Origin: Candidatus Latescibacterota bacterium
GTDB taxonomy: Bacteria > Latescibacterota > UBA2968 > GCA-2709665
Reading direction: 5' to 3'
NCBI GenBank assembly: GCA_965237675.1
Contig: OZ250150.1
Location: 2,464,001-2,528,000 of the forward strand
Length of the DNA: 64,000 nucleotides
In this document: positions 19,536 through 54,715 of the stretch, in pieces
Position numbering within the stretch: the first letter of the stretch is position 1
Layout: the number at the start of each line of letters is the position of its first letter
Position numbers and translations under genes: made by a program
Notes under the pieces: model-generated
Seen by the model: only the letters and a program-made list of their open reading frames with translations
The model's database searches: none
Told to the model about the DNA's origin: nothing

Positions 19536-19732
19536 GGGTACCTTCCACCGGGTTTATTGTTCGCAGCGGCGCGGTATTGCGTGCATAGACCATGCTTCGA
19601 CGCCCGCCGAAAAGACCCACGACGGGCGCAGGCCTCGCGTTCGGCCCCGAAGGTCGAGGCGTCGCTCGGAGGTCCGGCCCCCGAATCCGGATCGCCGCCT
19701 CAATGCGACGGTGGGGTTATCAAAGCTGCGGG

Positions 19733-19975: not shown

Positions 19976-20073
19976 GGCAACTATCTCCCTTTTTAATGGC
20001 GAACGCCGGGCCCCGACGTGCGAATGGGCGCGACCCTCCGTTCGCGTCTGTCGCCAGACGGTACACGTTTGTC

Positions 20074-21737: not shown

Positions 21738-21795
21738 ATTGTTCAGGATACGGGATTGCTTGTGGATTCCGGCCACCGGCTCCCGGATGTCGGCT

Positions 21796-22791: not shown

Positions 22792-22847
22792 AGGCAGGGG
22801 TAACGATTAGGGGAATAGCGAACGGATTGCGCCGTCGGGTCCGGGAA

Positions 22848-23030
22848 TCAGATGTTCTCGCCTTCGACCACCTTGCGGCCGTTGTACTGCCCGCAGTTGC
22901 CGCAGACCCGGTGAGGCCTGCGCGGCTGGCCGCAGTTGGGACAGTCGGAAAATGCAGGCTTTGTGAGTTTCCAGTGGGTCCGCCGTTTTCCGGTTCTGGA
23001 ATTGGAACTCCTGCGTTTCGGGTGTGCCAT
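22848..23030 (-). CDS. rpmF: 50S ribosomal protein L32 (Zn-ribbon form)
   Basis: [19 protein letters not shown]...[11 protein letters not shown]. Confidence 0.96.
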
Positions 23031-23043
23031 TTTGACTGCTCCT

Positions 23044-23556
23044 TCAGGATTGGTCTTTCAGAGCCCTCAGGGCCTCCCAACGGGGGTCGAGGTGGGTTGT
23101 CGCACAGTTGCACTTCGCCAGGTTGAGGTTCTCCCCGCACGTTGGACAAATACCCTCGCAGGATGCTTTGCACAGGGGGTTCAACGGGATTTCAAGCAGG
23201 ATATAGTCCTTGATTTCCTCTCCGAGATCCACCTTGTCTCCGGATCTGTCCAACCAGATGAGCGTTTCGTCTTCATCATCCTTCATGGATTCCGGCCGTT
23301 TTTTCTGGAATACGAACTTGAAGTCGGACGAAATGGAGAACGAAACGGGTTTAAGGCACCGCACGCACTCTTGCCGCAGGTTCGCACGCGTCTCTCCGCT
23401 TGCCGAAATGGATAAGCCTACCTTGACGAACTCGATGCGCGTTCTGATGGGACCCACGAATTGCAGATCCTCATCCTGAATATGCAACTCTTCGGGGGTC
23501 TCTTCCCAGTCGAGGCTGACCTTGCCTCCGTCGAGTTCGTTGAGTTTGACAATCAT
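23044..23556 (-). CDS. yceD: DUF177/YceD family protein
   Basis: [31 protein letters not shown]; directly upstream of rpmF. Confidence 0.92.
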
Positions 23557-33195: not shown

Positions 33196-33309
33196 GTACC
33201 CCTCCCTGTTTTTTCCCCATCGACTTGATCGACTCCTCCATCATACCGCCACTGCCTCCAACGGAGGAAAGAGCCATCGCTTCCCACTTCGCCCACGCGC
33301 CGGACAAGA

Positions 33310-34395
33310 CTACAGTGAGATTACCAGATCCTTGCCAAACTTAACATTGGCGACGTCGCAGGCCAGTTCGGCATATTTCTGAAAAGCTGCCCTGCCGTAA
33401 TGGGTTCCCATCCACCAACCTTGTACCAATTCGACCGAGTTATGTGCTAAGTCCGGTCGCCCCGGATAAAGATCAATGGCAGACCTTGCAATGAATCGCC
33501 TCTTGCTTCCGTGTTTCATTGCGCCAAACCTTTCCAGAAAGTCCGTATCCTGTTGGGCGAACGTCATCAGAATCTCCCTGATGACCTGCCAAGCGAATTT
33601 AGCAGGGTAAAATTCCCCGAGATAAGAGAAGCCCCGTTCTGTAGGTGGTCCCGTCGAGGGCGGTGTCGGTGGCGGATCCGACACAGGGTTCTCAGTTGGC
33701 GGAATGTGATTCCCATCCTCCGAACCGGGCTGTGAATCCGCTTTTGTTTGAATGAATTGCGAGCAAGCGTCCGGCTCGGGCTTATATCCGCAAATGTCCT
33801 CGACCTTGTCAGCAAGCAATTCGACGAGTATTTCGTCCGGCCCCGACAGAAGTTGATGCCACGCCTTCGGAATAGCGGCGGCTATATGTCTACCGCGTGT
33901 GACATCCTTATAATCGTCACGAGCGGTTGACAGAGCCTCGCCGGAAATTACTCGCTGGTATTCCAGATACCGGTGGAGACGTTCAGTTGATTCGGCGGGC
34001 GACCGTTCCAGGAGATCGAGTTTGTACACACGCCGCTCTTGGTACTGTCCTTCTTCTCCCGGTAGATAGAAGCTCCATTCATGACCGTCCGTAAGGACTG
34101 CCATCGGAACTCCTTGATGGAAAGCGTACTCAAACAACTGCCTGTCCCCGGTATTCGTCTGGCCAAGCCTCTTTACCTCTAAGAAAATTTTTGGACGCCC
34201 CGTTGTTTCACGAAGAGCGTAGTCGACCCGTCCGGACTCAACGGAATATTCGGGGGTTACGACGGATGTATCGAATACAGGCCAATCGAGTGCCTGCAAT
34301 ACAGGTAGCACAACCCCCTGAGAAACCGAAGCCTCGCTGGTATATTGCCCCGATTTGAGCGAAGTGCGAATTCGATCAACAGTTTCTCGTATCAT
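33310..34395 (-). CDS. HsdR-N-type PD-(D/E)XK nuclease fused to a SeqA-C-like domain
   Basis: SEASV..VLPVLQALDW, VTPEY..GRVDYAL..FLEVKR..QLFEYAF..VLTDGHEW; Pro-rich linker; C-domain KHGSKRRFIAR...GWWMGTHY. Confidence 0.75.
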   Translation of the reverse strand: MIRETVDRIRTSLKSGQYTSEASVSQGVVLPVLQALDWPVFDTSVVTPEYSVESGRVDYALRETTGRPKIFLEVKRLGQTNTGDRQLFEYAFHQGVPMAVLTDGHEWSFYLPGEEGQYQERRVYKLDLLERSPAESTERLHRYLEYQRVISGEALSTARDDYKDVTRGRHIAAAIPKAWHQLLSGPDEILVELLADKVEDICGYKPEPDACSQFIQTKADSQPGSEDGNHIPPTENPVSDPPPTPPSTGPPTERGFSYLGEFYPAKFAWQVIREILMTFAQQDTDFLERFGAMKHGSKRRFIARSAIDLYPGRPDLAHNSVELVQGWWMGTHYGRAAFQKYAELACDVANVKFGKDLVISL

Positions 34396-35052
34396 AAATG
34401 TCTCCCCAGATTTCCAGCACGCCCGGCGTTATTCTCGCAGACCTGCAAGTGCCCACGTAAGTTTGCGAACGCGCAAAGCGCATTTGCGCGGGCTAAAGCT
34501 GGCCTGCTTTCTCAACCAATATTTCGCAGATAGCTGACATGGGATGCCCCCCGCTATTATGGGTAAACGGAAACCAATATAGTTCATTGCGGCGACCAAT
34601 ACAAGATTCGTGACCGTCATTTGCCTGCGCTGGATCGGCGTGAGGAACAGGGGGTTATACGCGTAATTTGCCCGAATTTTCGCATCGAGCTTGCGCCGTC
34701 CTCGTTTGGATTCCGGTCCGCTTGGTCCTAGACGGGTCACGCAGCTCAGAGTGGCGTCCACATTGAGCGTCCAGTCTAAGCTTCCTGCCATTTTCCGAGT
34801 ATTCGCCCCGACTATACGGTTGTAAGATGCGCTGGGTTCGCTGAATCGACCATGTGTCGTTTATCGCGATGCAACGAGCTTTGAGACTTACCGGCGTCTC
34901 AAGTTGCGCTTGTCGCAATTTGCGCCTATCCCTATAATACCGAATACGTGGCTTGTTTTCGCGCCATTCGACTGATTCTTGGGTAGGAACTGCATCCGTT
35001 TGGCACCTGAGTAAATGCGCAAACCGTTGCATTAGGTGGGGCAAGAACGCAA

Positions 35053-38000
35053 ATGATTACCTCAATTTACGCGGCTTTACAAGGCTTCGCGGCGTCAGTA
35101 ACAGCCAAAATGACACAGATCACGGCTGGTGAGCCCGAAGAGCAACTTCGCGGTCCGTTTGAGAACTTCATGAAGGATGCCGCTCAGGCACTCGGATGGA
35201 AAATCGTCTGCACAGGGGAAACACCCCTGCCCGATCGCATCGGTAAGCCCGATTACGCCGTTCATCTCAACCAGCTTCTTGCAGGATACGTCGAGCTAAA
35301 GGCTCCGGGAGTCGGCGCAACGCACGATCGCTTCAAAGGTCACAATCGCGACCAATTCAAGAGGTTTTCGGCAATTCCTAATATTCTGTACACTGACGGC
35401 AATGAGTGGGCGCTATATCGGGACGGCAATCTGGTCGGTAGTGTCGTTCGCTTGGCCGGCGATGTCGCCACAGATGGCAGGAAGGCTGCCAAATTGAGCG
35501 ATGTCCACTCTGTTGAACGCGTGTTGCGCGATTTTCTATCGTGGGAACCGTCCATCCCCGTGGACCGAGACGGCAAGATTGACCTTAAGGGTTTCGCTTC
35601 GTTGTTGGCTCCGCTATGCCGGATGTTGCGCGATGACGTGAAGGATGCGCTTGCAAATCCGAATTCGTCCCTCGTCCGAATTGCGGAAGACTGGCGTAAG
35701 CTGCTGTTCCCTGATGCTTCGGACGAACAGTTCGCCGACGCGTACACCCAGACCGTGGCCTTCGCTCTGCTGTTGGGTCGGAGTGAGGGAGCGAATCCTC
35801 TCACGCTCAACTCTGCGCGGGACTCGCTTGCCGATCAACATGTCCTGCTGTCGGAGACACTATACCTGTTGGCTCGCAAAAAACCCGATAAAGAGATTGC
35901 CGCTTCACTCAAATTGCTGTTGCGTGTTATTGGCGTGGTTCCACCCGCCACGTTGTCAGGTGGCGAGGATCCCTGGCTCTATTTCTACGAAGATTTCCTC
36001 GCCGTATACGACCCCGCACTTCGTAAAGACGTGGGAGTCTTTTATACACCGGTGGAGGTAGTTCGAGCGCAGGTCCGGCTGATTGACGAACTGCTCGTCA
36101 GTCGTGTCGGAAAACCTTTCGGTTTCGCTGACCCCGGCGTGGTGACGCTTGATCCCGCCGTTGGAACCGGAACATACCTTCTTGGTGTAATTGAACACAG
36201 TCTTCGGCGCGTAAGGGCGGAACAGGGGCCGGGCGCGGTCGCCAGCCAAGCCACATCGCTAGGTCAGAACCTCTATGGTTTCGAATTGCTAGTTGGTCCC
36301 TACGCAGTGAGCGAACTTCGCGTTAGCCGTGCCCTTTGTAGTTACGGAGCAACGCTGCCCCGCGACGGTACGCATATCTACTTGACCAATACCCTCGAGA
36401 GTCCGAACGAAGAGCCCCCCTGGATGCCTTTTGTCGTAGAAGCCATTGCCGAACAGCATAAAAAGGCACTCGCGATAAAGAAATCGGTCCCGGTTATTGT
36501 CTGCTTGGGGAATCCACCCTATGACCGGCACGATGCAGTTGATACGAAAAGTGAGGACAATCTTTCCCTGTATGGAGGGTGGGTCCGCTTCGGGGACCCG
36601 TTGCCCGGCAATCTAGTTAAGGATAAAAGGGGCAGGGAACGAGAGCTAAAGACTGCCAAGTCCAGGCTCGCGAAAAGACAGGATCTTGCTATTCTTAAGG
36701 ATTTCATCGCTCCCGCACGTTCGTCCGGGCATGGTGTCCGTCTCAAGAACCTCTACAACCTTTACGTCTATTTCTGGCGTTGGGCATTGTGGAAAGTCTT
36801 CGAGCATGACACTGCCAAGGGTCCTGGCATTATAAGTTTCATCAGCGCGTCGAGCTATCTCGACGGAGACGCCTACTGCGGAATGCGCGAACACATGCGT
36901 CGAGTTTGCGACGAGATCTGGATACTCGACTTGGGTGGCGAAGGGCGGGGCACACGGCAGACAGAGAATGTATTTGCAATTCTTACACCGGTGGCCATCG
37001 CCGTAGCATTCCGTTCGAAAAAAGCTGCAACCGACAAGCCAGCGAAAGTGTGTTACGCCCAAGTTGAAGGAACACGTCAGGAGAAGCTCGCTTTGCTCGA
37101 CAAAATTGAGAGCTTTGCACACTCTATGTTGAAATGGCACGATTGTCCGGACGAATGGCAGGCTCCATTTCGGCCCGCTGGAACAGGCGATTACTTCGCA
37201 TGGCCGCCACTAACTGACATGATGCCTTGGCAACAATCCGGCGTCAAGGCGGGGCGAACCTGGGTGATTGCGCCTGAAACGGGAATGCTAGACGCACGCT
37301 GGGCCGCTTTACTTCGGGTCGAAAAGGACGACCGGCATGAGCTTTTTAAAGATTCTTCCACGGGACGAAAGGTTCACGAATCCGCTACTCAATTGCCGCC
37401 CTCCAAGGTCATGCTAGAACCCATTACCGAACTTGCAAGAGAGGAGCCACCTCCCAAGACAGTTCGTTTCGCATATAGGTCATTCGACCGCCAATTTATA
37501 TGTGCAGACGCCCGTTTGTTGGATAGGCCAGGTCCTGTGCTTTGGCGCGTTCACAGTGAGCAACAGGTTTTCTTGACGAGCTTGCTTAACCATCCGATTA
37601 GCGAAGGTCCTGCGGTAACGGCATGCTCGTATATTCCCGATCTTCACCATTTCCGTGGGTCGTTCGGTGCAAAGGAGATCTTCCCGCTCTTTCGTGCGTC
37701 CGATGGTTCGCGTACGAACATTTCACCTGGCCTACTCGAGATTCTGTGCAGATCATATCAGCGTAACGTCACACCAGAAGATTTCATTGCCTATGTCTAC
37801 TGCACGCTGGCGCATCCAAACTTCACGGCGCGGTTCAAAAACGAACTGGCCACCCGCGAACTTCGCGTACCACTCACGAAGGACATAGAACTGTTCGAAA
37901 AAGCCCGTGCGTTAGGTGCTCGGTTGCTCTGGTTTCACACTTACGGTGAACGATTCATCCCTGACGATCAGCCACGTGGTCACGTTCCCCGTGGTGCAGC

Positions 38001-38442
38001 CAAGTGTGCCAAGGGCGTTCCCCGGGACCCGGAGAGTTACCCAGACACGTTTACATACAGCGACGTGACGCAAATTCTCCGCGTCGGCGAGGGTGAGTTT
38101 AAGCCGGTTCCGCCCGAGGTATTCGAGTTTGAGGTTTCGGGCCTCAAGGTCGTACAGTCTTGGCTCAAGTATCGGATGAAGAGAGGAGCGGGTCGGAAAT
38201 CCTCACCCCTGGACGAAATTCGCCCAGAACGGTGGACCAGCCAATTTACCACTGAACTACTCCACTTGCTTTGGGTTCTGGAGGCGACGGTGGAAAATTA
38301 TCCCGATCAGGCGCGGCTACTTGAAGCCATTGTCGAAAGCGACTGCTTCAGTGCCGACGAATTACCTAGCGTTCCAGACGAAATGCGCAAACCGCCAAAG
38401 GCCATTAAGGGCGATCTGTTTTACGGGCAGAGCGGAGATTGA
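35053..38442 (+). CDS. Single-chain REase-N6-adenine MTase (type IIG/IIL; type ISP-like C-terminal TRD, no helicase)
   Basis: N-terminal KPDYA..YVELK nuclease; YEDFLAVYDP..GVFYTPVEVV, motif I LDPAVGTG, motif IV GNPPY, LYVYFWRWA; TRD YRSFDRQ, FEVSGLKVVQSWLKYR. Confidence 0.88.
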   Translation: MITSIYAALQGFAASVTAKMTQITAGEPEEQLRGPFENFMKDAAQALGWKIVCTGETPLPDRIGKPDYAVHLNQLLAGYVELKAPGVGATHDRFKGHNRDQFKRFSAIPNILYTDGNEWALYRDGNLVGSVVRLAGDVATDGRKAAKLSDVHSVERVLRDFLSWEPSIPVDRDGKIDLKGFASLLAPLCRMLRDDVKDALANPNSSLVRIAEDWRKLLFPDASDEQFADAYTQTVAFALLLGRSEGANPLTLNSARDSLADQHVLLSETLYLLARKKPDKEIAASLKLLLRVIGVVPPATLSGGEDPWLYFYEDFLAVYDPALRKDVGVFYTPVEVVRAQVRLIDELLVSRVGKPFGFADPGVVTLDPAVGTGTYLLGVIEHSLRRVRAEQGPGAVASQATSLGQNLYGFELLVGPYAVSELRVSRALCSYGATLPRDGTHIYLTNTLESPNEEPPWMPFVVEAIAEQHKKALAIKKSVPVIVCLGNPPYDRHDAVDTKSEDNLSLYGGWVRFGDPLPGNLVKDKRGRERELKTAKSRLAKRQDLAILKDFIAPARSSGHGVRLKNLYNLYVYFWRWALWKVFEHDTAKGPGIISFISASSYLDGDAYCGMREHMRRVCDEIWILDLGGEGRGTRQTENVFAILTPVAIAVAFRSKKAATDKPAKVCYAQVEGTRQEKLALLDKIESFAHSMLKWHDCPDEWQAPFRPAGTGDYFAWPPLTDMMPWQQSGVKAGRTWVIAPETGMLDARWAALLRVEKDDRHELFKDSSTGRKVHESATQLPPSKVMLEPITELAREEPPPKTVRFAYRSFDRQFICADARLLDRPGPVLWRVHSEQQVFLTSLLNHPISEGPAVTACSYIPDLHHFRGSFGAKEIFPLFRASDGSRTNISPGLLEILCRSYQRNVTPEDFIAYVYCTLAHPNFTARFKNELATRELRVPLTKDIELFEKARALGARLLWFHTYGERFIPDDQPRGHVPRGAAKCAKGVPRDPESYPDTFTYSDVTQILRVGEGEFKPVPPEVFEFEVSGLKVVQSWLKYRMKRGAGRKSSPLDEIRPERWTSQFTTELLHLLWVLEATVENYPDQARLLEAIVESDCFSADELPSVPDEMRKPPKAIKGDLFYGQSGD

Positions 38443-38585
38443 GGCGGCCACGTGCTTTTTGTTCCGATAACTTGCTAACGATCGAAATCGGCTTGGGAGG
38501 GGTGGTTACAAGCAAGCGATTTTTTTGAATTCTTTTTTTCGATCAGGCCTTATTGACTGCGGATATCAAGAGAGGGTCAAACGAA

Positions 38586-39638
38586 ATGGATGACTCGACC
38601 GAGAAAGACCAGAATAACGGCGAATCTCTGACCGAGCGAGAAATGCGAGGCTTGGAGACGACCTTGAGGAGTTCGAGGGCATTTGAAGCGTTTCAACGCT
38701 GTGCGCGTGAGCTTCAACGTATTTCGCACACCAAGGATTTCGGAAAGAACCAACGACGCTTGTCCGACGTCGAAGCCGAAGCGAAAGTGTGGCTCGATTC
38801 TGTCGGATGTGCCGAAGCAGCCGGAGTTTTAAACCCGAGTTATCGCTTTTTGCTTACGTTGTACCCGATTGAACGTGTTCACGATGAACGTTGGCTCGGC
38901 GGTTTGTACGAATCCGACCTCTGCGACATCAAGGCGGGCATTGAGGCCATACGTGAGCGCGAGGGCCTAGATGATGACGAGTACTGGCCCATCGGGGAGG
39001 GACCGGAGGATTGGGAGGAATTGGAACAGCGATATTCAGGGGTCTTGGATAGGAAGTTTGAAGAGACGCTTCGGGAATTCGGCATTCACGAAATCGCTGA
39101 TCTATACCAAATGGACCGAGAAGCATTCGACGCGCAACGTGAGCAGGGGCGTCGGCTCGCCTTTGAGGAAATTTCCGAGACGGAACAGGTCTATGCCGCC
39201 CAGAAACTGCTTGAAGTAGAGGCCGAAAAATGTGCCAAGGGAGGGGCATATTATGCCGCAAACGTCATGATCGGGTCCGCAATGGAGGCTGCTCTCTTGA
39301 CTGCATGTCTGAAGCACCTTGACGAAGCTCTTTCTGCCAAGGATCGATTGCCGAAATCTGAGCAGCCCGAACGAGAGAATCCGAAGCGCTGGCGATTCGC
39401 GGAACTGGCACGCATAGCAACTGAGGCGGGATGGCTGCCGGATTTTGTAGTAGGGGATCGTAGGGTGTGCTCCCAATCGCTCGTGGAAACGTTGCGATGC
39501 GTGCGAAACTTGGCACATCCTGCTAAACACCTATCTGACCCATTATCCCTTGATGTAGAAAGTGAATATACCAAAGCGCGAGCCGCGTACAATCTACTTG
39601 AGCGGTATTTGGCTGGGCCTGCCAACGAGTCCCCGTAG
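38586..39638 (+). CDS. Hypothetical protein with a C-terminal HEPN/DUF4145-like domain
   Basis: AYYAANVMIGSAMEAALL...LARIATEAGWL...LRCVRNLAHP; acidic helical N-terminal half. Confidence 0.6.
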   Translation: MDDSTEKDQNNGESLTEREMRGLETTLRSSRAFEAFQRCARELQRISHTKDFGKNQRRLSDVEAEAKVWLDSVGCAEAAGVLNPSYRFLLTLYPIERVHDERWLGGLYESDLCDIKAGIEAIREREGLDDDEYWPIGEGPEDWEELEQRYSGVLDRKFEETLREFGIHEIADLYQMDREAFDAQREQGRRLAFEEISETEQVYAAQKLLEVEAEKCAKGGAYYAANVMIGSAMEAALLTACLKHLDEALSAKDRLPKSEQPERENPKRWRFAELARIATEAGWLPDFVVGDRRVCSQSLVETLRCVRNLAHPAKHLSDPLSLDVESEYTKARAAYNLLERYLAGPANESP

Positions 39639-40666: not shown

Positions 40667-42301
40667 ATGCAGTCCATATCAGAGTTTCTAAGCGGAAAGA
40701 CGCTGTTTGTCACCGGTGCGACGGGGTTTCTGGCGAAGGGATTCGTGGAGAAGATCCTGTTTTCCGCGCCGGAGGTGGCGCGGATCTATCTCCTGATCCG
40801 GCCGCGGTCGCGTTCCAAGGGCCAACGGGTTTCCGAAACGGAACGGCTGGAGTCGGAAGTCCTTCAGTCGCGCGCGTTCGCAAGGTTGAGGACGAGGTGG
40901 GGCGCGGCGTTTCCTTCGGTCATGGCGGACAAGGTCATCGCGGTCGCCGGCGATCTGACCGAAGACGGACTGGGGATTTCCTCCGCGCAGCGCGAGCGTC
41001 TGGTCGAAGAAGCGGATTTCGTTGTCAACTACGCCGGCACCGTGGTTTTCGACGAACCCATCGACAGTGCGCTCGAACAGAATACAATGGGCGCCGCCCG
41101 GGTCGTGGCCTTCGCAAAAACCTGCCGGAAAGCCGCGCTCGTTCACGTGTCAACCGCGTACGTGAGCGGACAGCGGACCGGCCGGATTTCCGAGGCTCCG
41201 TTCCCCACTGACCGAAGCGTGGCGGATCTCATCAACGGAAGCGCGGCCGGGTTCGACCTGCAGGGAGAGATCGATGCCATTCGCGCCTTTGCCGACGAGG
41301 TGCGGGCGTCTTCCCGGCGGCCGGAACTGGAGGCGGCGTTCCTGAAACAACTCAGGCGTCAGGACCGGGGCAAACGCGTGACCGACTACCGGAAAGCGCA
41401 CCAGGTCGAGGCCCTTCGCCAGCGCTGGATCCGGAAGCAGTTGGTGGACGAAGGGATGCGCCGGGCGCGGCGGCTGGGTTGGAACGACAGTTACACGCTC
41501 ACCAAGGCGATGGGTGAGCAGTTGATCGTGAAGTCGCGGGGAGAACTTCCAACGGCCATCGTCCGGCCGGCGATCGTGGAAAGCAGCCTCGAGGATCCTG
41601 AGCCGGGCTGGGTGGAGGATCTGAAAGTGGCCGATCCCCTGATCGTCCACTACGGCAAAGGCCGGCTGTCGAATTTCCCCATCGATCCGGGGATCGTGCT
41701 GGATATTATACCCGTGGACGTGTTGAACAACGCCGTCACGGCGGTTCTTCCGCAGATACGCCGATCTGGGGAGATCAAGGTCTACCAGGTGGCCTCGGGT
41801 TCGCAGAATCCGGTGCGGGCGGGTGAAATTGTCGAACTGGTTTACGGGTACTTCAAAACCTCGCCCATGCAGGACCGGGACGGGCGGCCTATTGAAGTCC
41901 GGCCCTGGCAGTTCATCAGCAGGAGACGATTCTTCTGGATCGTTGTCTGGAAATACAAGCTTCCGCTGAGCCTTTTGAAGGCGGCCGTGGATTATTTGCC
42001 CGCCCGATGGTTTTCCCGTTACCGGCGGCGGGTTTCCGGCATGGAGACCATGCTGGAAAGGCTCGAGTCCCTGGTCGATATATATTGCGGGTACACCCAT
42101 CTCGACTGCGAATTCGAAACGGAGAATACCCGCCGGCTGTTCCAGGCGCTGAATCCAGAGGACCAGAAGGTTTTCAACTTCGACGTGACGCGCATTAACT
42201 GGCGGAAATATATCCAGGAGATTCACATTCCGGGATTAAAACACCACGTATTGAAAGAGGGGGACGGAGCGGTTTCCGTGTTAACCGCCGAAGCCGATTG
42301 A
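40667..42301 (+). CDS. Alcohol-forming fatty acyl-CoA reductase (NAD_binding_4 plus male-sterility domain)
   Basis: TLFVTGATGFLAK, IYLLIR, HVSTAYV, catalytic YTLTKAMGE, IVRPAIVES..EPGW, DIIPVD, C-terminal FNFDVTRINWRKYIQEIHIPGL. Confidence 0.9.
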   Translation: MQSISEFLSGKTLFVTGATGFLAKGFVEKILFSAPEVARIYLLIRPRSRSKGQRVSETERLESEVLQSRAFARLRTRWGAAFPSVMADKVIAVAGDLTEDGLGISSAQRERLVEEADFVVNYAGTVVFDEPIDSALEQNTMGAARVVAFAKTCRKAALVHVSTAYVSGQRTGRISEAPFPTDRSVADLINGSAAGFDLQGEIDAIRAFADEVRASSRRPELEAAFLKQLRRQDRGKRVTDYRKAHQVEALRQRWIRKQLVDEGMRRARRLGWNDSYTLTKAMGEQLIVKSRGELPTAIVRPAIVESSLEDPEPGWVEDLKVADPLIVHYGKGRLSNFPIDPGIVLDIIPVDVLNNAVTAVLPQIRRSGEIKVYQVASGSQNPVRAGEIVELVYGYFKTSPMQDRDGRPIEVRPWQFISRRRFFWIVVWKYKLPLSLLKAAVDYLPARWFSRYRRRVSGMETMLERLESLVDIYCGYTHLDCEFETENTRRLFQALNPEDQKVFNFDVTRINWRKYIQEIHIPGLKHHVLKEGDGAVSVLTAEAD

Positions 42302-42428
42302 CCGGCCTGTGGGCGTTGGAGGTTCAAGGTCGTCAACGGTCGTAGATTCCCGTGATCGGGACGCGTCCGGGGCGTTTCGGAACCGGGGGCGGGCGGGCTT
42401 CCGGCTCTTTTTTTGGGACTGTGGACGT

Positions 42429-44369
42429 ATGGATCGAAATCAATCGGTTCCCGTGCACAAGATGCTGGTGCAGGATCCGGCACGGCTGTGTATCGCATAC
42501 GACCAAGCCGCCGCGGAACTGATCGCGGCCGTGACGCCCGAGGGCTATTTCGAAGGGTGGGCGCCCGAGGATCTGACGTGGCCGGCCGGCGGCCCCGAAG
42601 AGATCGGACTTGAAGGACTGGAAAAGCGGGCGCGGATCGTGAACGCGATTCACCAGGGCGTTCCGGCGCTGCGAGACAGGCGTTTGAAGGAGGCCCACGC
42701 CAATTTCGACGAACTGACACCCGCGTACCACGAAGGCAGCAGAATCTACCTGCGGCTGCAGGATCAGTTCGTGTCCACGGGCGCGGGCACGGCACGGGAT
42801 TTTCTCAAGCGCTACCAATCTCTGTACGTGGAGGCGCTGGCGAAGGGGGACGATTTTTCGCCTGACATGGGCGAGACGTCCCTCGCGGAAGCCCGGATCT
42901 CCCGGGTGCCGTTGTCCCACGCCAGGGCCGTGGCGGAAGCGCTTTCCCGCGTGGCGATGGACGACGATCCTCTTTGGGAGGCCGAATACGTCTGTACGGT
43001 GGATGGAACAACGTGGAAGGGATCCCTTCGGAAACTCCTGGAAGACGTGGCTGCGCGGACGTTGCACTACATTGCCGCCGGAGAGCTTCTCGCCACGCGC
43101 TACAATACGTACAACAACCTGGGATGGTTCGGCAGTTCGGTGTGGAAGGTGGTCGCGGAAGCCGATGTCCTGCTGTGCCGGATGGAAGAAATTGATCCCG
43201 CTCGCTTGGCGGCCCTTAAGGCGGACGTGGCCCTGGGCCAGAGCATGCTGGTGGAGTTTCTGGCGGCCCACCGGGAAGATCCCTCCCGGCTCAGGCCGGA
43301 GAATTACTGGTACGGGCAGCCGTACAGTTATCTGACGCGGGATATGGTCGACCTGAGCGCCCGAATCGTAGATGGCGTGAATACGGTGGTACGAGAACGG
43401 GACGGGTTGACGGATATGGCGCTCCCTCCCCTGCTGGCCGGCACCCGGACCGGTCGGTTTCTGGACTACGCTCACGTGGGAAAAACGGAGGAACTGACGT
43501 CCTTTCGGCGCAAGCTCCGGATGTTGCGGTGGGCAAGGTGCTGCTGGCGGGTGGGGAAACGCAGGCGACGGATCGCGGAGGAGGATCTCGCGCCGTCTCT
43601 CAGGCACCAGCGTGCGTGGGACGTCTGGCTGGCGTGGTCCCGGGATACGATGGATGCGTTCGGCATCCGCCTGGATGTGACCGTGGCCCCCATGTTTCGC
43701 ACGCTCGTTCGGGAAATGGACCTTTCCGGTGGCGGTCAGAAGATTCTGTTCCTGCCCTCGCACCAGAGCATGCTGGAGCATTTCGTGGTGTTTTCGGTGT
43801 TCAACGATCCGGTGTTTCTGGATGCCATGGGATGGGATCGTTCCCGCCCGGTGGTACAGTTGGCCCGCACGGGTCTGGCGAAGTCGACGTCGGTGAAGAT
43901 CGGATCCCGCGAGATCAGTATCTTCGGTATGTCTCCCGACAAGTTCGACCGGATGTTCGAGACCGTCGACGGCTTCATCACTCGAGACAGCGTGGATATC
44001 TCATCCCATACGATTCCGCGCATGCTGCAGGAGATGGAACACCGCCCGGGTCTGATCTATCCGATGGGCACAACGGCTTCCTTCGACGTGCAGTTGTTTC
44101 CGCTGCAACACGCTTTGTTTGCGAAACTGCCCCAGGACGTCGTGATGATTCCCATCGCCTTTCGCGGCAGCCATTCGCTCTGGCCAAAGTGTCCGGCGCG
44201 TAATCTGAATATCAATCCAGGTGTGATCGAGGCGGTGATCTTACCACCTATGCCAGGCGAGACCACGTTGCTGCCTCGCCGCCGGTCCCTGCGAATCCAG
44301 CTGGAGGCCGCCAATCTGCTTCAGGCGGTCCATATATCGAATTTGCTGAATCCGGAACCGTCGCAATGA
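42429..44369 (+). CDS. Atypical glycerolipid acyltransferase (C-terminal PlsC/GNPAT-like domain, long unknown N-terminal region)
   Basis: KILFLPSHQSMLEH (Hx4E variant of Hx4D), LIYPMGTT (variant of FPEGT), MIPIAFRGSHSLWPK, PGVIEAVILPP. Confidence 0.7.
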   Translation: MDRNQSVPVHKMLVQDPARLCIAYDQAAAELIAAVTPEGYFEGWAPEDLTWPAGGPEEIGLEGLEKRARIVNAIHQGVPALRDRRLKEAHANFDELTPAYHEGSRIYLRLQDQFVSTGAGTARDFLKRYQSLYVEALAKGDDFSPDMGETSLAEARISRVPLSHARAVAEALSRVAMDDDPLWEAEYVCTVDGTTWKGSLRKLLEDVAARTLHYIAAGELLATRYNTYNNLGWFGSSVWKVVAEADVLLCRMEEIDPARLAALKADVALGQSMLVEFLAAHREDPSRLRPENYWYGQPYSYLTRDMVDLSARIVDGVNTVVRERDGLTDMALPPLLAGTRTGRFLDYAHVGKTEELTSFRRKLRMLRWARCCWRVGKRRRRIAEEDLAPSLRHQRAWDVWLAWSRDTMDAFGIRLDVTVAPMFRTLVREMDLSGGGQKILFLPSHQSMLEHFVVFSVFNDPVFLDAMGWDRSRPVVQLARTGLAKSTSVKIGSREISIFGMSPDKFDRMFETVDGFITRDSVDISSHTIPRMLQEMEHRPGLIYPMGTTASFDVQLFPLQHALFAKLPQDVVMIPIAFRGSHSLWPKCPARNLNINPGVIEAVILPPMPGETTLLPRRRSLRIQLEAANLLQAVHISNLLNPEPSQ

Positions 44370-44459
44370 GAATCCGCGCCGGGACGTCCGGGGTTATCCC
44401 TAAGGTTTGGTCGGCCGCGTTCGCCGGGCTCGGCCGGTTTCGGTAATCGGGAGTGCGTT

Positions 44460-46307
44460 ATGACTGACTGGGGAATTGCAGCGGTTGCCGTAGCGGTTGT
44501 TCTCGCGGTAGCGCTTCTGGCGAAACGGAGGCGATCCGAAAGCGAACCGGACGCTTTTTTCGATCATTCCGAAGCGGAACGATTCCCCCACAAGTGGGGA
44601 TATACGGATACGAGGTTCGAGTTCGTAGACGACCGGACAGTGAGGGTAACCGGGAGCCGGTACCCGATTTCGGGATACCGGATGCCGTTTCTGGTCGCCT
44701 TTGTGGAGGACGTGCTGGGCATTGCGATCCGAAGGGAAGACTCGTACGAAGAGCGTGAGGATACCGGAACGCCGGAGCCGAACGTGGAAGCAGCTTTCGG
44801 TAACGCGGTGAAAGAACGGTTCAGAGAAGGGCAGGTTTCGTTCGATCCCAAAGCCAGGCTGGTGCACAGCCACGGACAGCTGAGTGTTGAGGAAGTGTAT
44901 CGCGTGATGTATGGAGATTCACTTCCGCGTCTGGTCGATCTGGTGTTCTATCCGGAGGATGAGGCCGACGTCAAGGCCATGATCGAATTGGCCAACGAGC
45001 ACAATGTCTGCCTGGTGCCGTACGGTGGGGGGACCAATGTGAGCGGGGCGCTGGCGTGTCCGCCAGACGAGCGGCGCACGATCGTTTCCGTGGATATGCG
45101 TCGGATGAACCGGGTGCTGTGGATTGACGAGGCGAATCTGCAGGCCTGCGTCGAGGCGGGTATTTCGGGAAAGGAACTCGAGCACGTGCTCGGTGAGCGG
45201 GATTACACGTCGGGGCACGACCCGGATAGCGTGGAACTGTCCACGATGGGCGGGTGGATTTCGACCAATGCCAGCGGGATGAAGAAGAACCGGTATGGCA
45301 ATATAGAAGACATCGTGCTCGAGGCGACGCTGGTGACGCCCACCGGCGAAATCGCGACCCGCCGGGTGACGCCCAGAAACTCGACGGGTGTCCAGCCCAG
45401 GGTGTTTTTGTTCGGCAGCGAGGGCAATTTCGGCATTATCACCTCGGCGGTGATCAAGATTCATCCGATCCCCGAGGCGCGTAAGTACGGGGCGCTTGTT
45501 TTTCCGGCCTTCGAGAAGGGCGTGGAATATTTGAAGGCGCTTCGGCAGACCGGAATGCTGCCGGCGAGCATCCGCCTGGTCAACAACAACGAATTCAGGT
45601 TCGGGCAGGCACTGAAACCGGAGCCGACATTTTTAAAGGGCGTCAAAGACCGGATCCAGAAGTTCGTTCTGATAAAGGTCCTGGGTTTCGATCCGGAGAA
45701 GATGGCGGCATGTACCATCGTGATGGAAGGCACGCACGATGAAGTGCGCCAGCAGGAACGCACGATCTTCAGCCTGGCGAAAAAATACGGCGCCAAGAGC
45801 GCGGGCGCGAGCAACGGCAAGCGGGGATACTCGCTCACGTTCGGGATCGCCTATATTCGAGACTTCCTGAATCAGTACGGCATTCTTGGCGAGACATTTG
45901 AGACGTCTGTCCCATGGGATCGGGTTCATCAGGTGTGCGATGCGGTATCCGGCGAACTGGTTACGCAGGCCGGCAGCTACGGCGTCCCCGGAAATCCCTA
46001 TCTCTCGTACAGGGTGACGCAGACCTATCATACCGGAGTCTGCATCTATTTTACGATGGGCATTTACGGCAAGGGCCTTGATCGGCCCGGCCGGGTGTTC
46101 CACGCGATCGAACACCGGCTGCGTCAGGTGATTCTGGACAACGGAGGCTCCTTGTCGCACCATCACGGCGTTGGCAAGGTGAGGCGGGAATTCCTGCCTC
46201 AGATTCAGACCGATAACAGCATCCAGGTCATGCGCCAGGCGAAGAACGCGATGGATCCGAAGAACATCTTTGGGATACGCAACGGCGTTTTTGGGGGAAC
46301 TGACTGA
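44460..46307 (+). CDS. agpS: Alkyl-dihydroxyacetonephosphate synthase (FAD-linked, animal AGPS-like)
   Basis: KWGY.D, TGSRYP, VPYGGGTNV, GHDPDSVELSTMGGWISTNASGMKKNRYGNIED, GSEGNFGIIT, PASIRL, RVTQTY..G.CIYF, GSLSHHHGVGK. Confidence 0.9.
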   Translation: MTDWGIAAVAVAVVLAVALLAKRRRSESEPDAFFDHSEAERFPHKWGYTDTRFEFVDDRTVRVTGSRYPISGYRMPFLVAFVEDVLGIAIRREDSYEEREDTGTPEPNVEAAFGNAVKERFREGQVSFDPKARLVHSHGQLSVEEVYRVMYGDSLPRLVDLVFYPEDEADVKAMIELANEHNVCLVPYGGGTNVSGALACPPDERRTIVSVDMRRMNRVLWIDEANLQACVEAGISGKELEHVLGERDYTSGHDPDSVELSTMGGWISTNASGMKKNRYGNIEDIVLEATLVTPTGEIATRRVTPRNSTGVQPRVFLFGSEGNFGIITSAVIKIHPIPEARKYGALVFPAFEKGVEYLKALRQTGMLPASIRLVNNNEFRFGQALKPEPTFLKGVKDRIQKFVLIKVLGFDPEKMAACTIVMEGTHDEVRQQERTIFSLAKKYGAKSAGASNGKRGYSLTFGIAYIRDFLNQYGILGETFETSVPWDRVHQVCDAVSGELVTQAGSYGVPGNPYLSYRVTQTYHTGVCIYFTMGIYGKGLDRPGRVFHAIEHRLRQVILDNGGSLSHHHGVGKVRREFLPQIQTDNSIQVMRQAKNAMDPKNIFGIRNGVFGGTD

Positions 46308-46317
46308 CGGAGAAATT

Positions 46318-46470
46318 GGGGAAAGGCGACGGATGGGTCGTGCTCCGAGCCCGCAAAGTCTTTCTCTTATCTCTTTTAATATTAATTTTTTACGCCCTTT
46401 TTCTTTCTCGCCAAAGAAAAAGGGCCAAAAAGAACGGCGCCGCTCGGCGCGGGGCCGTTCTTTCCGTGAA
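46318..46470. repeat. Dispersed ~155-bp repeat core, copy 3 (inverted relative to copies 1 and 2)
   Basis: GGGAAAGGCGA...TAATATTAAT...CTTTTTCTTT-CTCGCC-AAAGAAAAAG...GAACGGCGCCGCTCGGCGCGG...TTTCCGTGAA. Confidence 0.85.
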
Positions 46471-46479
46471 CCACCTTAG

Positions 46480-46520
46480 CAGCCCGTTGAAAAAGTCCAT
46501 CCGGGCTGCGTCCGGCCCTC
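46480..46520 (+). mobile_element. Solo left end of the 13607-13878 MITE
   Basis: TTAG|CAGCCCGTTGAAAAAGTCCATCCGGGCTGCGTCCGGC matches 13607-13645; TTAG is the reverse complement of the CTAA target. Confidence 0.75.
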
Positions 46521-46684
46521 CGTTTCGCTAAACGGTATGTGGCGGTATGGTCTTCTTCCGTCTACCCTCTAGCACGGAAAAACCCCCCACGTGTTTTCGG
46601 TCTTGCCGCCAGGTTCACCTCTACCGACTTTAGCTGACGGCTGTCTACTGACCGCCGATAGCTGACTTTAAATGGTTTTTTTTT

Positions 46685-47491
46685 ATGTTCGACGGAAAGA
46701 TCGTTGCGATAACCGGAGCGTCGTCGGGTCTGGGCGCCACGCTGGCGCTGGCGTTCGCGGAATATGGAGCCGATCTGGCACTGTTCGCGCTGGACGAGGG
46801 TGTACAGGACACGGCGGCGCGTTGCCGGGAGCGGGGCGGCCGCGTGATTACGGCCACGGGCGACGTTGGAAAACCCGAGGACTGCGAGGCGTGGATCGGC
46901 GCGGCCGTTGCCGAGTTCGGGGCCGTGGATTATCTGATCGCGTGCGCCGGGATCAGCATGTGGGCCAGGTTCGACGAGGTGGAGGACCTGGGGATTTTCC
47001 GCAGGTTGATGGACACGAACTATCTGGGTATCGTGCATTGCGTGTATTACGCGCTGCCCCATCTGAAAGCGCGCGACGGGATGGTGGTGGCGATATCGTC
47101 CATTCAGGGCAAGATCGGCGTGCCCATGCACACGGGATACGTGGCCTCCAAGCATGCCGTGCAGGGGTTCTTCGAGTCGTTGCGGACGGAGTTGCTCGAC
47201 ACCGGCGTGGACGTGCTTACGGTGCTGCCACACTGGCTGCGCGGGACCAATTTGCGCAAGGCGGCCTTCGGAAAGGACGGCGGCTCCCTGGGCCCGTCCA
47301 GCCGAAAGCACAGCAGGGAGTCGATTTCGCTGGACGACGCCTGCAAAGCCATCATCGAGGCCATGAAAAAGAGGAAGCGGGAACTGATTATTCCGTTCAA
47401 GCTCCGTTTTCTGCCCTGGCTGCACCTGATCCATCCGAAGATCGTCGAATACCTGGTAACGCGAGGCGTGGCGAAACAGGAGAAGGGTTAA
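46685..47491 (+). CDS. Classical SDR of the DHRS7/DHRS7B (11beta-HSD1-like) group; candidate acyl/alkyl-DHAP reductase
   Basis: ITGASSGLG, ACAGISM, LMDTNYLG, ISSIQGK, YVASKHAVQGFFESLRTEL. Confidence 0.85.
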   Translation: MFDGKIVAITGASSGLGATLALAFAEYGADLALFALDEGVQDTAARCRERGGRVITATGDVGKPEDCEAWIGAAVAEFGAVDYLIACAGISMWARFDEVEDLGIFRRLMDTNYLGIVHCVYYALPHLKARDGMVVAISSIQGKIGVPMHTGYVASKHAVQGFFESLRTELLDTGVDVLTVLPHWLRGTNLRKAAFGKDGGSLGPSSRKHSRESISLDDACKAIIEAMKKRKRELIIPFKLRFLPWLHLIHPKIVEYLVTRGVAKQEKG

Positions 47492-47537: not shown

Positions 47538-48233
47538 TCAGGAAAAGAGTCCATCCACGTCCAGGTGTTGTTCAATCAATTCGGGCATGCATCCAAGGTC
47601 GCCGGCGTCCACGTCCACGCCGGAATCGTAGGGCAGGATGCCGAGGGACGGAATTCCGGAGACGCGGAAGATCACGTCCGGGCTGGTGCGGGCGGCGCGC
47701 GGATCGCCGTCCCGGGTGGTATTGTAGACGACGCCTCTGACCTCCAGGTTGCGCTTTTCAGCGGCTTCGAGCGTCAGCAGGGTGTGATTGATCGTGCCTA
47801 ATTCGGCGCGGGCGACCACCAGCAGGGGCAGGCCCAGCCGGCCCGCGAGGTCCGCGACCATGACATCATCCCGAATCGGAACCAGCAGGCCGCCCACGCC
47901 CTCCACGAGAACGGTTTCGTGAAGGGTTGCCAGGCGACGATAGGCATTGACGATGGGTTCCAGGTGGACGTGGCGACCTTCCAGTTCGGCTGCCACGTTG
48001 GGCGACAGCGGCGCGGCGAGGCGCACGGGGTTGATCAATTCGAGGGAATCGGAGACGCCCGCGGCATTCTTGAGGAATCGCGCGTCGGTTGTGCCGCCGG
48101 ATGAGACCGGCTTGAACACGCCAACGTCAACCCCGCGGCCGCGAAGGACGGCGGCGAGACCGGCGGTCACGGCGGTTTTGCCCGCACCCGTGTCGGTGGC
48201 GGTGACGAAGAATCCCCTGGGTCGCATTTTCAA
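47538..48233 (-). CDS. bioD: Dethiobiotin synthase
   Basis: FVTATDTGAGKT, FKPVSSG, VEGVGGLLVP, LGTINHTLLT. Confidence 0.95.
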   Translation of the reverse strand: MKMRPRGFFVTATDTGAGKTAVTAGLAAVLRGRGVDVGVFKPVSSGGTTDARFLKNAAGVSDSLELINPVRLAAPLSPNVAAELEGRHVHLEPIVNAYRRLATLHETVLVEGVGGLLVPIRDDVMVADLAGRLGLPLLVVARAELGTINHTLLTLEAAEKRNLEVRGVVYNTTRDGDPRAARTSPDVIFRVSGIPSLGILPYDSGVDVDAGDLGCMPELIEQHLDVDGLFS

Positions 48234-48310
48234 TGTGTCTCCGGAAGCGGGGCGAACCCGTGCAGTCGCGCCCGGGGGTCTCTTTCAGGCCGCCGACAGG
48301 CGGCTTCTGA

Positions 48311-49678
48311 TCAGGCGGGGCCGGTTACGGCTCGAATGGATTCGCAGGCGATATCCATCAGTTTTTCGAGATCGCCGCTGGAGATAGCAAGGGGTGGCAT
48401 GAGCACGATGGTATCGCCGAGCGGGCGGATGAGGAGGCCCCGTTTTCGGGCTTCGCCGCAGACACGGACGCCGACCCGGTCCCCCGGAGGATAGGGACGG
48501 CGGCAGGATTTATCGGCAACCAGTTCGATCCCGGCAATAAAGCCGCACTGCCGCACGTCGCCCGCGTGGGCGAGGGGCTCGAAACGGGCGAGTCGGCGCG
48601 CGAGGAGATCGATCTTGGGCCGCAGGGACGCGAGCACGTTCTGGCTTTCAAAGCGCTCGATGGCGGCCAGGGCCGCGGCGCAGCCGAGGGGATTGCCCGT
48701 GTACGTGTGGCCGTGGAAAAACGTCCTGCCTTCGGTGTCGTCGCCCAGAAAGGCATCGAAGATGTCACTGGTGGCCAGTGTGACGGCCACGGGAAGGTAT
48801 CCGCCGGTGATGCCCTTGCCCAGGCAGAGGATGTCCGGCGCCACGTCTTCTTTCTCGCAGGCGAACATGGCCCCGGTGCGGCCGAAACCGGTGGCGATTT
48901 CGTCGGCGATAAGCAGGACGTCGTGCGCCCTGCAGAGGTCGGCGATCCCCTTCAGATAGCCTTCCGGATGAACCAGCATACCACCCGCGCCCTGGATGAG
49001 CGGTTCGACAATGAAGGCGGCGATGCGGTGCGCGTCCCGCCTGAGGATGTCTTCCGCCGCCCGGAGGCAGCCCTGGCTGCAGCCGGCGTCTCTGTTGCAG
49101 AACCCGCATCGGTAGGGGTGAGGCGCGGGCGCGTTCAGCGAAGGGAAGAGGAGGGGGCCGTAGGTCTCGTGGAAGAGATCGATGTTGCCGACGCTCATCG
49201 CGCCGATGGTGTCGCCGTGATAGCTCCGGGCGAGGCTGAGGAAGGTTGTTTTTTCGGGTCGCGGATCCGGCTTCTGTCGCCAGTACTGGAAGGCGATCTT
49301 GAGGGCGATTTCCACGGCGCAGGCGCCGGTGTCCGAGTAGAACACGTGGCTGAGCCCGGCCGGGGTGATTTCCACGAGTTTTTCGGCCAGCCTGATCGCG
49401 GGTATGTTGGAAAGACCGAGGAGCGTGCTGTGGGCGACCTGGTCCAGCTGCCTGCGTATGGCGGCGTCGATTTCCCCGACACGGTGGCCATGGACGTTGC
49501 ACCACATGGACGAATAGCCGTCGAGGTACCGGTTACCGTCGATGTCCTCCAGGTAGACGCCGTCCCCGCGCGCGATGACAATGGGGTCCTCGCGTGCGTA
49601 CGTGCGCATCTGGGTGAACGGGTGCCAGACGATGCGGCGGTCCAGGTCTTTGAGGCGGGCCTTGTCTTCGGGGGACAT
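48311..49678 (-). CDS. bioA: 7,8-diaminononanoate (DAPA) aminotransferase
   Basis: VWHPFTQM, YLDGYSSMWCNVHGH, YHGDTIG, EPLIQGAGGM, DEIATGFGRTG, LGKGITGG, HGHTYTGNP; adjacent to bioD. Confidence 0.95.
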   Translation of the reverse strand: MSPEDKARLKDLDRRIVWHPFTQMRTYAREDPIVIARGDGVYLEDIDGNRYLDGYSSMWCNVHGHRVGEIDAAIRRQLDQVAHSTLLGLSNIPAIRLAEKLVEITPAGLSHVFYSDTGACAVEIALKIAFQYWRQKPDPRPEKTTFLSLARSYHGDTIGAMSVGNIDLFHETYGPLLFPSLNAPAPHPYRCGFCNRDAGCSQGCLRAAEDILRRDAHRIAAFIVEPLIQGAGGMLVHPEGYLKGIADLCRAHDVLLIADEIATGFGRTGAMFACEKEDVAPDILCLGKGITGGYLPVAVTLATSDIFDAFLGDDTEGRTFFHGHTYTGNPLGCAAALAAIERFESQNVLASLRPKIDLLARRLARFEPLAHAGDVRQCGFIAGIELVADKSCRRPYPPGDRVGVRVCGEARKRGLLIRPLGDTIVLMPPLAISSGDLEKLMDIACESIRAVTGPA

Positions 49679-54586: not shown

Positions 54587-54715
54587 GCCGGCGGCGCGGA
54601 AAGGAAGAAGCCTTGCCGAAATGCCGGGGCCGGGCTTCTTGTTGTGTCGCCCTTTCGATCTGATTATCTTGACGGCACACACGGGGTTTATCAAAAGGAA
54701 AAAAGGAGCGGAACA

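Follow-up and report, generated by a model that had tools for sequence, protein, structure and literature searches.

A conserved four-gene cluster of Latescibacterota and its proposed role in ether-lipid synthesis from dihydroxyacetone phosphate

Could a bacterium carry, in one compact cluster, the steps by which animal peroxisomes make ether lipids? The animal peroxisomal pathway consists of FAR1, GNPAT, AGPS and an acyl/alkyl-dihydroxyacetone phosphate (DHAP) reductase (PexRAP/DHRS7B), and AGPS chemistry requires both 1-acyl-DHAP and a fatty alcohol. The question is raised by positions 40667-47491 of a 64,000-nucleotide stretch of a Candidatus Latescibacterota genome (the window), in which four co-oriented plus-strand open reading frames (ORFs) encode an alcohol-forming fatty acyl reductase (FAR), an acyltransferase (gene 2, abbreviated AT), an alkyl-DHAP synthase (AGPS) and a short-chain dehydrogenase/reductase (SDR). 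Our answer, given with moderate confidence, is that the four genes make up a conserved module for ether-lipid synthesis by the alkyl-DHAP route, and that AT and SDR probably also supply the main entry of the organism into glycerolipid synthesis.

The features of the cluster, with the basis of each in brackets, are as follows (aa, amino acids; alignment A1 comprises 26 homologues of gene 2).

40667..42301, plus strand: gene 1, alcohol-forming fatty acyl reductase, FAR1-type, 544 aa from the ATG at 40667 (Pfam, PDB)
42429-44369, plus strand: gene 2, AT, 646 aa from MDRNQ, Met at 42429 (start set by homologues)
42429..43493, plus strand: N-terminal all-helical domain of AT, about 355 aa (alignments A1/A2, AlphaFold2 model)
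43494..44369, plus strand: PlsC-like glycerolipid acyltransferase domain of AT (fold match; PF01553 matches in the family)
43761..43778, plus strand: catalytic-dyad motif HQSMLE (HX4E) of AT (alignment A1)
44460..46307, plus strand: gene 3, alkyl-dihydroxyacetone-phosphate synthase (AGPS), 615 aa (Pfam, PDB alignment)
46685..47491, plus strand: gene 4, classical SDR, 268 aa, putative acyl/alkyl-DHAP reductase (Pfam, NCBIfam, linkage to AGPS)
42383..42404, plus strand: terminator-like hairpin with T-run in the FAR-AT gap, possible attenuation (not above chance)

Gene content and conserved order of the cluster

The four neighbouring same-strand genes named in a preliminary description of this DNA are all present, FAR, AGPS and SDR being recognised by homology and AT by fold. 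Gene 1 has the FAR1-type pair of Pfam domains, NAD_binding_4 (9.4e-63) followed by Sterile (2e-16), and its translation carries the GxxGxxG and YxxxK motifs as TGATGFLAKG and YTLTK. Its best solved relative is the fatty acyl-CoA reductase 7eoz (4e-87), and it is the single FAR, at 544 aa, of the entire window genome (G000; 5.6 Mb in 3 contigs, 99.93% complete).

The identity of gene 3 as an AGPS is unambiguous from its sequence, and acyl/alkyl exchange is its predicted activity. Its Pfam domains are FAD_binding_4 and FAD-oxidase_C (2.5e-39 and 5e-36), and residues 44-608 align to residues 94-656 of guinea-pig AGPS (4bby, 2.5e-152), including the AGPS-specific N-terminal part. Dictyostelium AGPS (2uuu) matches at 3e-87 and generic FAD-linked oxidases (GlcD/LDH) at ∼1e-25 only. 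The alignment to 4bby shows conservation of the SHHHGVGK loop, of PASIRL and of TQTY; the HHH loop, the Arg and the Tyr are active-site residues of the guinea-pig AGPS. The gene is single copy in the genome. AGPS of this type is widespread among environmental bacteria: a total of 4086 such proteins were found at E<=1e-100, with names including Poribacteria, Marinimicrobia and Gemmatimonadota. The best 120 of the 4086, considered for a eukaryote affinity of the window AGPS, are all bacterial or without a name. One relative (P0144, 1060 aa) combines aminotransferase domains (PF00155, PF01212, PF01053) with an AGPS 69% identical to that of the window, and may be a genuine fusion or, its contig being 5.8 kb long, an artefact of gene calling.

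Gene 4 is a classical SDR (adh_short 2.2e-43; NCBIfam PRK06181 1.5e-85) that carries TGASSGLG for the TGxxxGxG motif and YVASK for YxxxK. Its best solved relatives are clavaldehyde dehydrogenase and 11-beta-HSD1 (∼2e-23), and a search of the ESM Atlas returned bacterial SDR clusters only, which is uninformative on likeness to DHRS7B.

The conservation of the cluster was followed in 168 genomes of the phylum, namely G000, 131 others of its class (families f1-f4) and 36 outside the class; the order of the window genome corresponds to families f1 and f2 (53 genomes). Scanning one genome per species gave 129 AT loci, 80 of which were analysed by tblastn with the four window proteins. A locus was counted as having room if it had at least 1.8 kb of upstream and at least 4.5 kb of downstream flank (66/80). 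Of the 66 loci with room, 32 have FAR, AT, AGPS and SDR co-oriented and in this order, at AT identities as low as 45%; another 4 have FAR-AT only and 30 have AT alone. FAR lies directly 5' of AT in 36 of the 66. Across all 80 loci, 35 have all four genes, 5 have FAR-AT-AGPS, 7 have FAR-AT and 33 have AT alone. Contig ends cut 8 of the 80, which are the FAR-AT loci L010, L016 and L039 and all five FAR-AT-AGPS loci. The gene order is conserved beyond chance, and the gene-neighbourhood comparison that the preliminary description had proposed as a check came out in its favour: the genes co-occur, with the same order and strand in 35/80 related loci. AT is also found in records titled Trueperaceae (L047), Gemmatimonadetes RS821 (L052), Gammaproteobacteria (L046) and Eisenbacteria (L050), the first two with all four genes and the last two with FAR-AT only; these record titles may be unreliable.

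The intergenic gaps in the window cluster are 127, 90 and 377 bp, and the four genes may be read from one transcript. A scan for promoters and terminators stayed at chance level, with 6 terminator-like sites observed against 8.8 expected from shuffles.

The SDR orthologue lies 3' of AGPS in the cluster loci and adjoins AGPS also where FAR and AT sit elsewhere. The two are on the same strand, 9-1135 bp apart, in 15 of 18 f4 genomes compared (the exceptions are G102, G103 and G104), and the SDR orthologue is absent from AGPS-less genomes. Because it always accompanies AGPS, this SDR is the candidate for the keto reduction, and its linkage points to an acyl/alkyl-DHAP reductase. In family f4 the FAR match is inside a ∼1400-aa protein and AT and AGPS are scattered; stand-alone AT genes in f4-type loci have no conserved neighbours beyond close kin. 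The window cluster is thus a FAR-AT pair joined to an AGPS-SDR pair.

Such a composition opens the alternative that FAR and AT form an ElbD-type ether-lipid system in split form, independent of AGPS and comparable to the elb system of Myxococcus xanthus, to which AGPS-SDR was joined here as a separable module. Locus L081 (784-5004, minus strand; genome G136) encodes a 1406-aa ElbD-like fusion of NAD_binding_4, Sterile, AMP-binding and PF01553 domains, and f4 genomes with this FAR-AMP-binding-acyltransferase fusion have AT and AGPS dispersed and AGPS-SDR still paired on their own. In addition, three AGPS-less loci (L021 6623-16250, L050 8256-12740 and L083 2603-11717, minus strand) hold an acyl-CoA synthetase, FAR, AT and a HAD hydrolase, in L083 followed by a Zn-dehydrogenase and a LarA-like gene. 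This arrangement, acyl-CoA synthetase-FAR-AT-HAD(-Zn-ADH-LarN), looks like an unfused elb cluster around the same new AT. For the window we nevertheless consider the split ElbD-type system very unlikely: its cluster contains no HAD, acyl-CoA synthetase or ElbD-like gene, its genome has one FAR, and with AGPS present known alkyl-DHAP chemistry accounts for all four genes.

The acyltransferase family of gene 2

The ORF of gene 2 is open from a GTG at 42309, but homologues begin at a later Met, which makes 42429 the most likely start. The protein has no Pfam or NCBIfam match even at E<=10, PF01553 included. Scanned singly, 11 of the 26 aligned homologues match PF01553 at E<=1, with a best value of 8.9e-8. 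The earlier label of gene 2 as an acyltransferase-domain protein is therefore sound at the level of family and fold, and fails for the window protein's own sequence. A word-indexed search gave 61 homologues of ∼646 aa, the few named ones from metagenome-assembled genomes (MAGs) of Latescibacteria, Handelsmanbacteria and Gemmatimonadetes. A profile searched exhaustively against 1.84 billion representatives returned 66 AT proteins, 7 of them full length (607-665 aa) and the rest fragments; among these matches there are no fusions, no canonical acyltransferases and no protein longer than 665 aa. Because so exhaustive a search returns 66 proteins and no canonical acyltransferase, the AT family is, as judged from sequence, small, sharply bounded and never fused.

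HX4D is the motif of glycerolipid acyltransferases. The 26-sequence alignment has a C-terminal block P-x-H-Q-S-x-x-D-H, followed by blocks resembling motifs II-IV, and the dyad is HX4D in 21/26 homologues and HX4E in 5/26, namely the window protein and four of its close kin. In LpxM, which belongs to the same superfamily, the catalytic residue is a Glu, going by the title of PDB entry 5knk (LpxM E127A).

The AlphaFold model of AT has a pLDDT of 80.7. Its C-terminal 290 residues superpose on Thermotoga maritima PlsC (5kym) with Z 13.7 and a root-mean-square deviation of 4.0 over 230/241 residues (VIA-align), as compared to Z 7.3-7.6 for GPAT1 and plastid glycerol-3-phosphate acyltransferases (GPATs; 8e4y, 8ia1, 1k30, 1iuq), and the top Foldseek matches are the same proteins at probability 1.00. 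The N-terminal domain is a bundle of long helices with many invariant polar and aromatic residues, as in YWYGQxYSYLTRD. Folded alone with AlphaFold2 it reaches a pLDDT of 85.8, and its comparison with 48,161 chains gave generic helical bundles only, the best (Z 8.9) being a designed helical barrel. On these models, gene 2 represents a new ACYLTRANSFERASE family that combines a helical N-terminal domain with a PlsC-like acyltransferase fold. Likeness to GNPAT found no backing at the sequence level: the family is a separate one with PlsC as its closest fold, and no tie of AT to GNPAT, PlsB or ElbD was found by phmmer, by profile searches or, for the ElbD domain, by hhalign.

With T. maritima PlsC so far ahead of the GPATs, and with one database source labelling a homologue '1-acyl-sn-glycerol-3-phosphate acyltransferase', AT could be an sn-2 enzyme, a PlsC-like 1-alkyl-glycerol 3-phosphate (G3P) acyltransferase acting at the end of the pathway, the acyl-DHAP then coming from another enzyme or from the canonical PlsC-like protein. 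We judge this unlikely. A fold match does not determine the acceptor, and the window genome, which is provided with a canonical PlsC-like gene in any case, offers no other candidate for sn-1. Moreover, AT occurs where PlsY is missing, which fits an sn-1 replacement, and the FAR-AT adjacency mirrors the FAR-GNPAT fusions described in PMC13012113.

We give next to no weight to the idea that FAR and AT make wax or neutral esters, AT being an alcohol acyltransferase. FAR-AT pairs do exist without AGPS, and WS/DGAT was not found in the window genome, in a search that counts for little as its control was silent. Set against this, the fold and motifs of AT are those of glycerol-phosphate acyltransferases, its distribution mirrors the loss of PlsY and GpsA and not storage-lipid genes, and the AGPS of the same cluster consumes the alcohol.

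Entry into glycerolipid synthesis, and the surroundings of the cluster

Among the 131 class genomes besides G000, AT is found in 129, FAR in 127, AGPS in 123 and the SDR orthologue in 118. PlsY and the GpsA C-domain are found in none of the 131 and PlsX above the cut-off in one (G145). In the other 36 genomes of the phylum the figures are 29 for PlsY, 33 for PlsX, 29 for GpsA, 2 for AT and 1 for AGPS. The sole strong PlsX match in the class (G145:C8:68072-69016, 1.9e-108) stands on a separate contig, in a genome with a contamination rating of 7%, and may be foreign DNA.

The window genome has no PlsY and no PlsB-type GPAT_C domain, and its PF01210 matches are weak. It has one canonical PF01553 (PlsC-like) protein, in a 272-aa frame, and CdsA is present. 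A second method gave the same picture: tblastn with the PlsX, PlsY and GpsA ORFs of G010, a relative from the phylum, found nothing in G000 at E<=1e-3; the fabH beside the G010 plsX did match its orthologue in the window, at 65% identity. In G010 plsX lies directly upstream of this fabH orthologue, and in the window the slot is empty.

22792..22847, minus strand: empty plsX slot, 56 bp between rpmF and fabH (Pfam on ORFs)
22848-23030, minus strand: rpmF (Pfam)
21796-22791, minus strand: fabH (Pfam)
17382-23556, minus strand: yceD-rpmF-fabH-fabD-fabG-acpP-fabF-rnc cluster without plsX (Pfam)

Exactly one canonical PF01553 protein is found in 38/53 genomes of the order, with 14/15 in the window's genus and 21/21 in genus g11. 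G008, which belongs to another family and is 99% complete, repeats the pattern with a FAR-AT pair, one PlsC-like protein and neither PlsX, PlsY nor GpsA. G031 has neither PlsY nor AT and carries an ElbD-like fusion. With PlsX/PlsY, GpsA and a PlsB-type enzyme all missing, the cluster is likely to play a central part instead of an accessory one, and AT with SDR is probably also the main entry of the organism into glycerolipid synthesis. An archaeal-type lipid route was considered and set aside: the PcrB/GGGPS-family gene of the window genome (G000:C1:4358843-4359499, also L084 5805-6551, minus strand; 1.1e-41) has no lipid-gene neighbours, lying between alaS and ptsI (recA-recX-alaS, ptsI-metK) with no glycerol-1-phosphate dehydrogenase or UbiA-type gene beside it. 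Genes of the PcrB/GGGPS type are reported from all 12 FCB phyla surveyed in PMC6431249.

In the pathway that we propose, FAR would convert fatty acyl thioesters to fatty alcohol, AT would acylate DHAP at C1, AGPS would swap the acyl group of acyl-DHAP for the fatty alcohol and SDR would reduce the keto group of the AGPS product. The single canonical PlsC-like enzyme and CdsA would take over afterwards. With DHAP acylated first and reduced after, the same enzymes would be a source of lysophosphatidate without GpsA or PlsX/PlsY. AT is the candidate maker of acyl-DHAP because it is the only acyltransferase-fold protein in the cluster and the sole one in the genome besides the PlsC-like protein; it would be a DHAP, or possibly DHAP/G3P, sn-1 acyltransferase. 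E. coli PlsB and yeast Gat1/Gat2 take both DHAP and G3P, and AT may likewise accept both. Homology, fold, linkage and the filling of a metabolic gap together point to the acceptor and acyl donor of AT, the SDR substrate, the co-transcription and the lipid product suggested here. The complete alkyl-DHAP route of the preliminary description stands in so far as the four functions map onto the scheme and the genes co-occur in order, and has to be amended for gene 2, in which no likeness to GNPAT was found by sequence.

The wide retention of AT can also be read in another way. Of the four genes it is retained in the most genomes (129/131) and persists where AGPS and SDR are lacking, and FGGY kinases are present, so AT could be a housekeeping G3P acyltransferase in a lineage from which PlsX/PlsY were lost. 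The G3P would be supplied by glycerol or by a dehydrogenase that has escaped recognition, AGPS would be fed by a side activity, and the neighbours would share no more than a lipid theme. This we regard as rather unlikely, given that GpsA is missing from 131/131 class genomes, that AGPS, with its absolute need for acyl-DHAP, is in 123/131 and that AGPS is always accompanied by a ketoreductase-type SDR. If AT takes both acceptors, the G3P and DHAP readings merge.

Several observations weigh against a DHAP-acylating AT and against the central role that we assign to the cluster. The acceptor of AT is assigned from context, its best fold match is a lysophosphatidate (sn-2) acyltransferase and neither a GPAT nor a DHAP acyltransferase, and in the window protein the dyad Asp is replaced by Glu. 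phmmer and the 26-sequence profile gave chance matches only (E 0.12 or worse) against all PDB chains, and hhalign of AT with the ElbD-type acyltransferase domain gave 4.5% probability. The 127- and 377-bp gaps and the hairpin after FAR leave room for more than one transcript. FAR-AT pairs occur in five truly AGPS-less genomes (G008, G037, G039, G149 and G153), in which the AGPS search found GlcD-like matches only (∼1e-22). As AGPS-less genomes also lack the SDR orthologue and GpsA, the reduction step is unexplained there and AT is not dedicated to AGPS. PlsY and the cluster occur together in two genomes, G034 and G169, the latter of which holds L047 and carries two PlsY genes. Few independent lineages underlie the complementary pattern, in essence one class and G008. 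Four FGGY kinases in the window genome make G3P from glycerol possible, and the contamination rating of this genome is 8%. No lipid data were found for any member of the Latescibacterota. Finally, no PEDS1/CarF domain was found, on which ground the expected product would be a saturated 1-O-alkyl (plasmanyl) lipid and not a plasmalogen; as the positive control of that search was also silent, its result counts for little.

The cluster is bounded upstream by a defence island of lower GC content (0.50-0.54 vs ∼0.60) and downstream by convergent bioD/bioA.

31474-39638, both strands: lower-GC defence-like stretch (GC 0.50-0.54 and gene content)
31474-33195, minus strand: GmrSD (defence-like island)
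33310-34395, minus strand: HSDR_N protein (defence-like island)
35053-38442, plus strand: Type ISP restriction-modification enzyme, 1129 aa (defence-like island)
38553-39638, plus strand: ORF without family assignment, 361 aa (defence-like island)
47538-49678, minus strand, and 54644-56896, plus strand: bioD/bioA region, with malate synthase G further downstream

The 361-aa ORF at 38553-39638 was considered as a fifth gene of the cluster and rejected, as it accompanies the Type ISP gene in L001, L003 and L006. bioD (AAA_26) and bioA (Aminotran_3) converge on the SDR gene, a position kept in 14 related loci.

Significance and comparison with known systems

AGPS homologues are reported from 67/92 and elbD homologues from 50/92 Black Sea Latescibacterota MAGs (PMC11868695), and sponge Latescibacterota MAGs have AGPS and elbD matches (bioRxiv 10.64898/2026.06.23.733905). 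The publications found in our literature search contain, outside their supplementary tables (which may list these genes), no account of the four-gene cluster, of the AT family or of missing PlsX/PlsY/GpsA in Latescibacterota.

If our reading of the cluster is right, AT joins PlsB, PlsX/PlsY and the ElbD type as a fourth enzyme type for the first bacterial acylation step, and acyltransferases that look unrelated have taken on the acylation of DHAP at least twice. The window lineage would be the first bacterial case in which the acyl-DHAP route is the main road and not a side road, and the second among bacteria to have the four steps together in a single cluster. The four genes would provide a concrete gene set for bacterial 1-O-alkyl glycerol ethers, environmental biomarkers whose producers are largely unknown, and would matter to the discussion of whether eukaryotes owe their ether-lipid pathway to bacteria. 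As the AGPS reaction does not require oxygen, such a route would be able to run in anoxic sediments and sponge tissue. We also put forward, tentatively and as something short of probable, that one whole class within the Latescibacterota gave up the universal bacterial start by GpsA, PlsX/PlsY or PlsB and builds its glycerolipids from DHAP, as peroxisomes do, by means of the AT family and an acyl/alkyl-DHAP reductase. With FAR and AGPS in almost all of the genomes, 1-O-alkyl lipids would then be major, possibly dominant, membrane lipids of widespread sediment and sponge bacteria, and these would be a sizeable source of the 'orphan' monoalkyl glycerol ethers of the environment. Should our reading of the cluster fail, it still stands as a well-conserved version of the AGPS operon of myxobacteria, and its acyltransferase as an orphan that merits characterisation. 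What most deserves experimental work is the new AT family in a lineage without the canonical first steps.

The cluster resembles the animal pathway in its four chemical steps and their logical order, in an AGPS that is a close homologue (2.5e-152) and in the FAR1 domain pair. It differs in gene 2, which has no detectable homology to GNPAT, and in the lack of a plasmalogen step, as far as a PEDS1 search with a silent control can indicate. The yeast acyl-DHAP pathway consists of the dual G3P/DHAP acyltransferases Gat1/Gat2 and the 1-acyl-DHAP reductase Ayr1. The likeness to it is in the acylation of DHAP followed by an SDR-type reduction to lysophosphatidate. In yeast this route runs beside G3P acylation, whereas here it would be the only recognisable route. 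T. maritima PlsC (5kym) is the closest solved fold to the C-terminal 290 residues of AT, including an N-terminal two-helix element, but shares 10% identity with it and is a 240-aa sn-2 enzyme without a helical N-terminal domain.

The myxobacterial elbA-E/ElbD system likewise makes ether lipids with a FAR module linked to one for glycerolipid acyl transfer, and relatives of the window genome in f4 have an ElbD-like protein of 1406 aa, with split forms accompanied by HAD in other relatives. In contrast, an ElbD-like fusion and adenylation or carrier domains are missing from G000, its cluster lacks the HAD that is a component of elb clusters, and the ElbD-type acyltransferase domain is an ordinary PF01553 (1.8e-19), unlike gene 2.

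The closest system is an operon of M. xanthus, described in PMC9131029 and PMC13012113, that consists of MXAN_1676 (AGPS), MXAN_1675 (a FAR-GNPAT fusion, 'FARAT') and MXAN_1674 (an NAD-dependent epimerase/dehydratase); in the AGPS knock-out, ether lipids were slightly lower. With this operon described and its AGPS knocked out (PMC9131029; PMC13012113), the statement of the preliminary description that no characterised operon resembles the cluster does not hold. As far as those two sources describe it, the M. xanthus operon likewise brings together, co-oriented, an AGPS, modules for FAR and for acyl transfer and a Rossmann reductase of NAD(P) type, and it is interpreted as a eukaryote-like alkyl-DHAP route. 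In the window, which is from another phylum, FAR and AT are separate genes, the four genes run FAR-AT-AGPS-SDR, a classical SDR serves as the reductase, and AT is of a new family that has a 355-aa helical N-terminal domain and gave no sequence link to GNPAT. The AGPS route of M. xanthus is a minor one beside ElbD and normal phospholipid synthesis, whereas in the window genome the PlsX/PlsY/GpsA route is absent. The cluster is a variant of a known bacterial AGPS operon and not the first of its kind; what is new is the AT family and its occurrence in a lineage without the canonical first steps.

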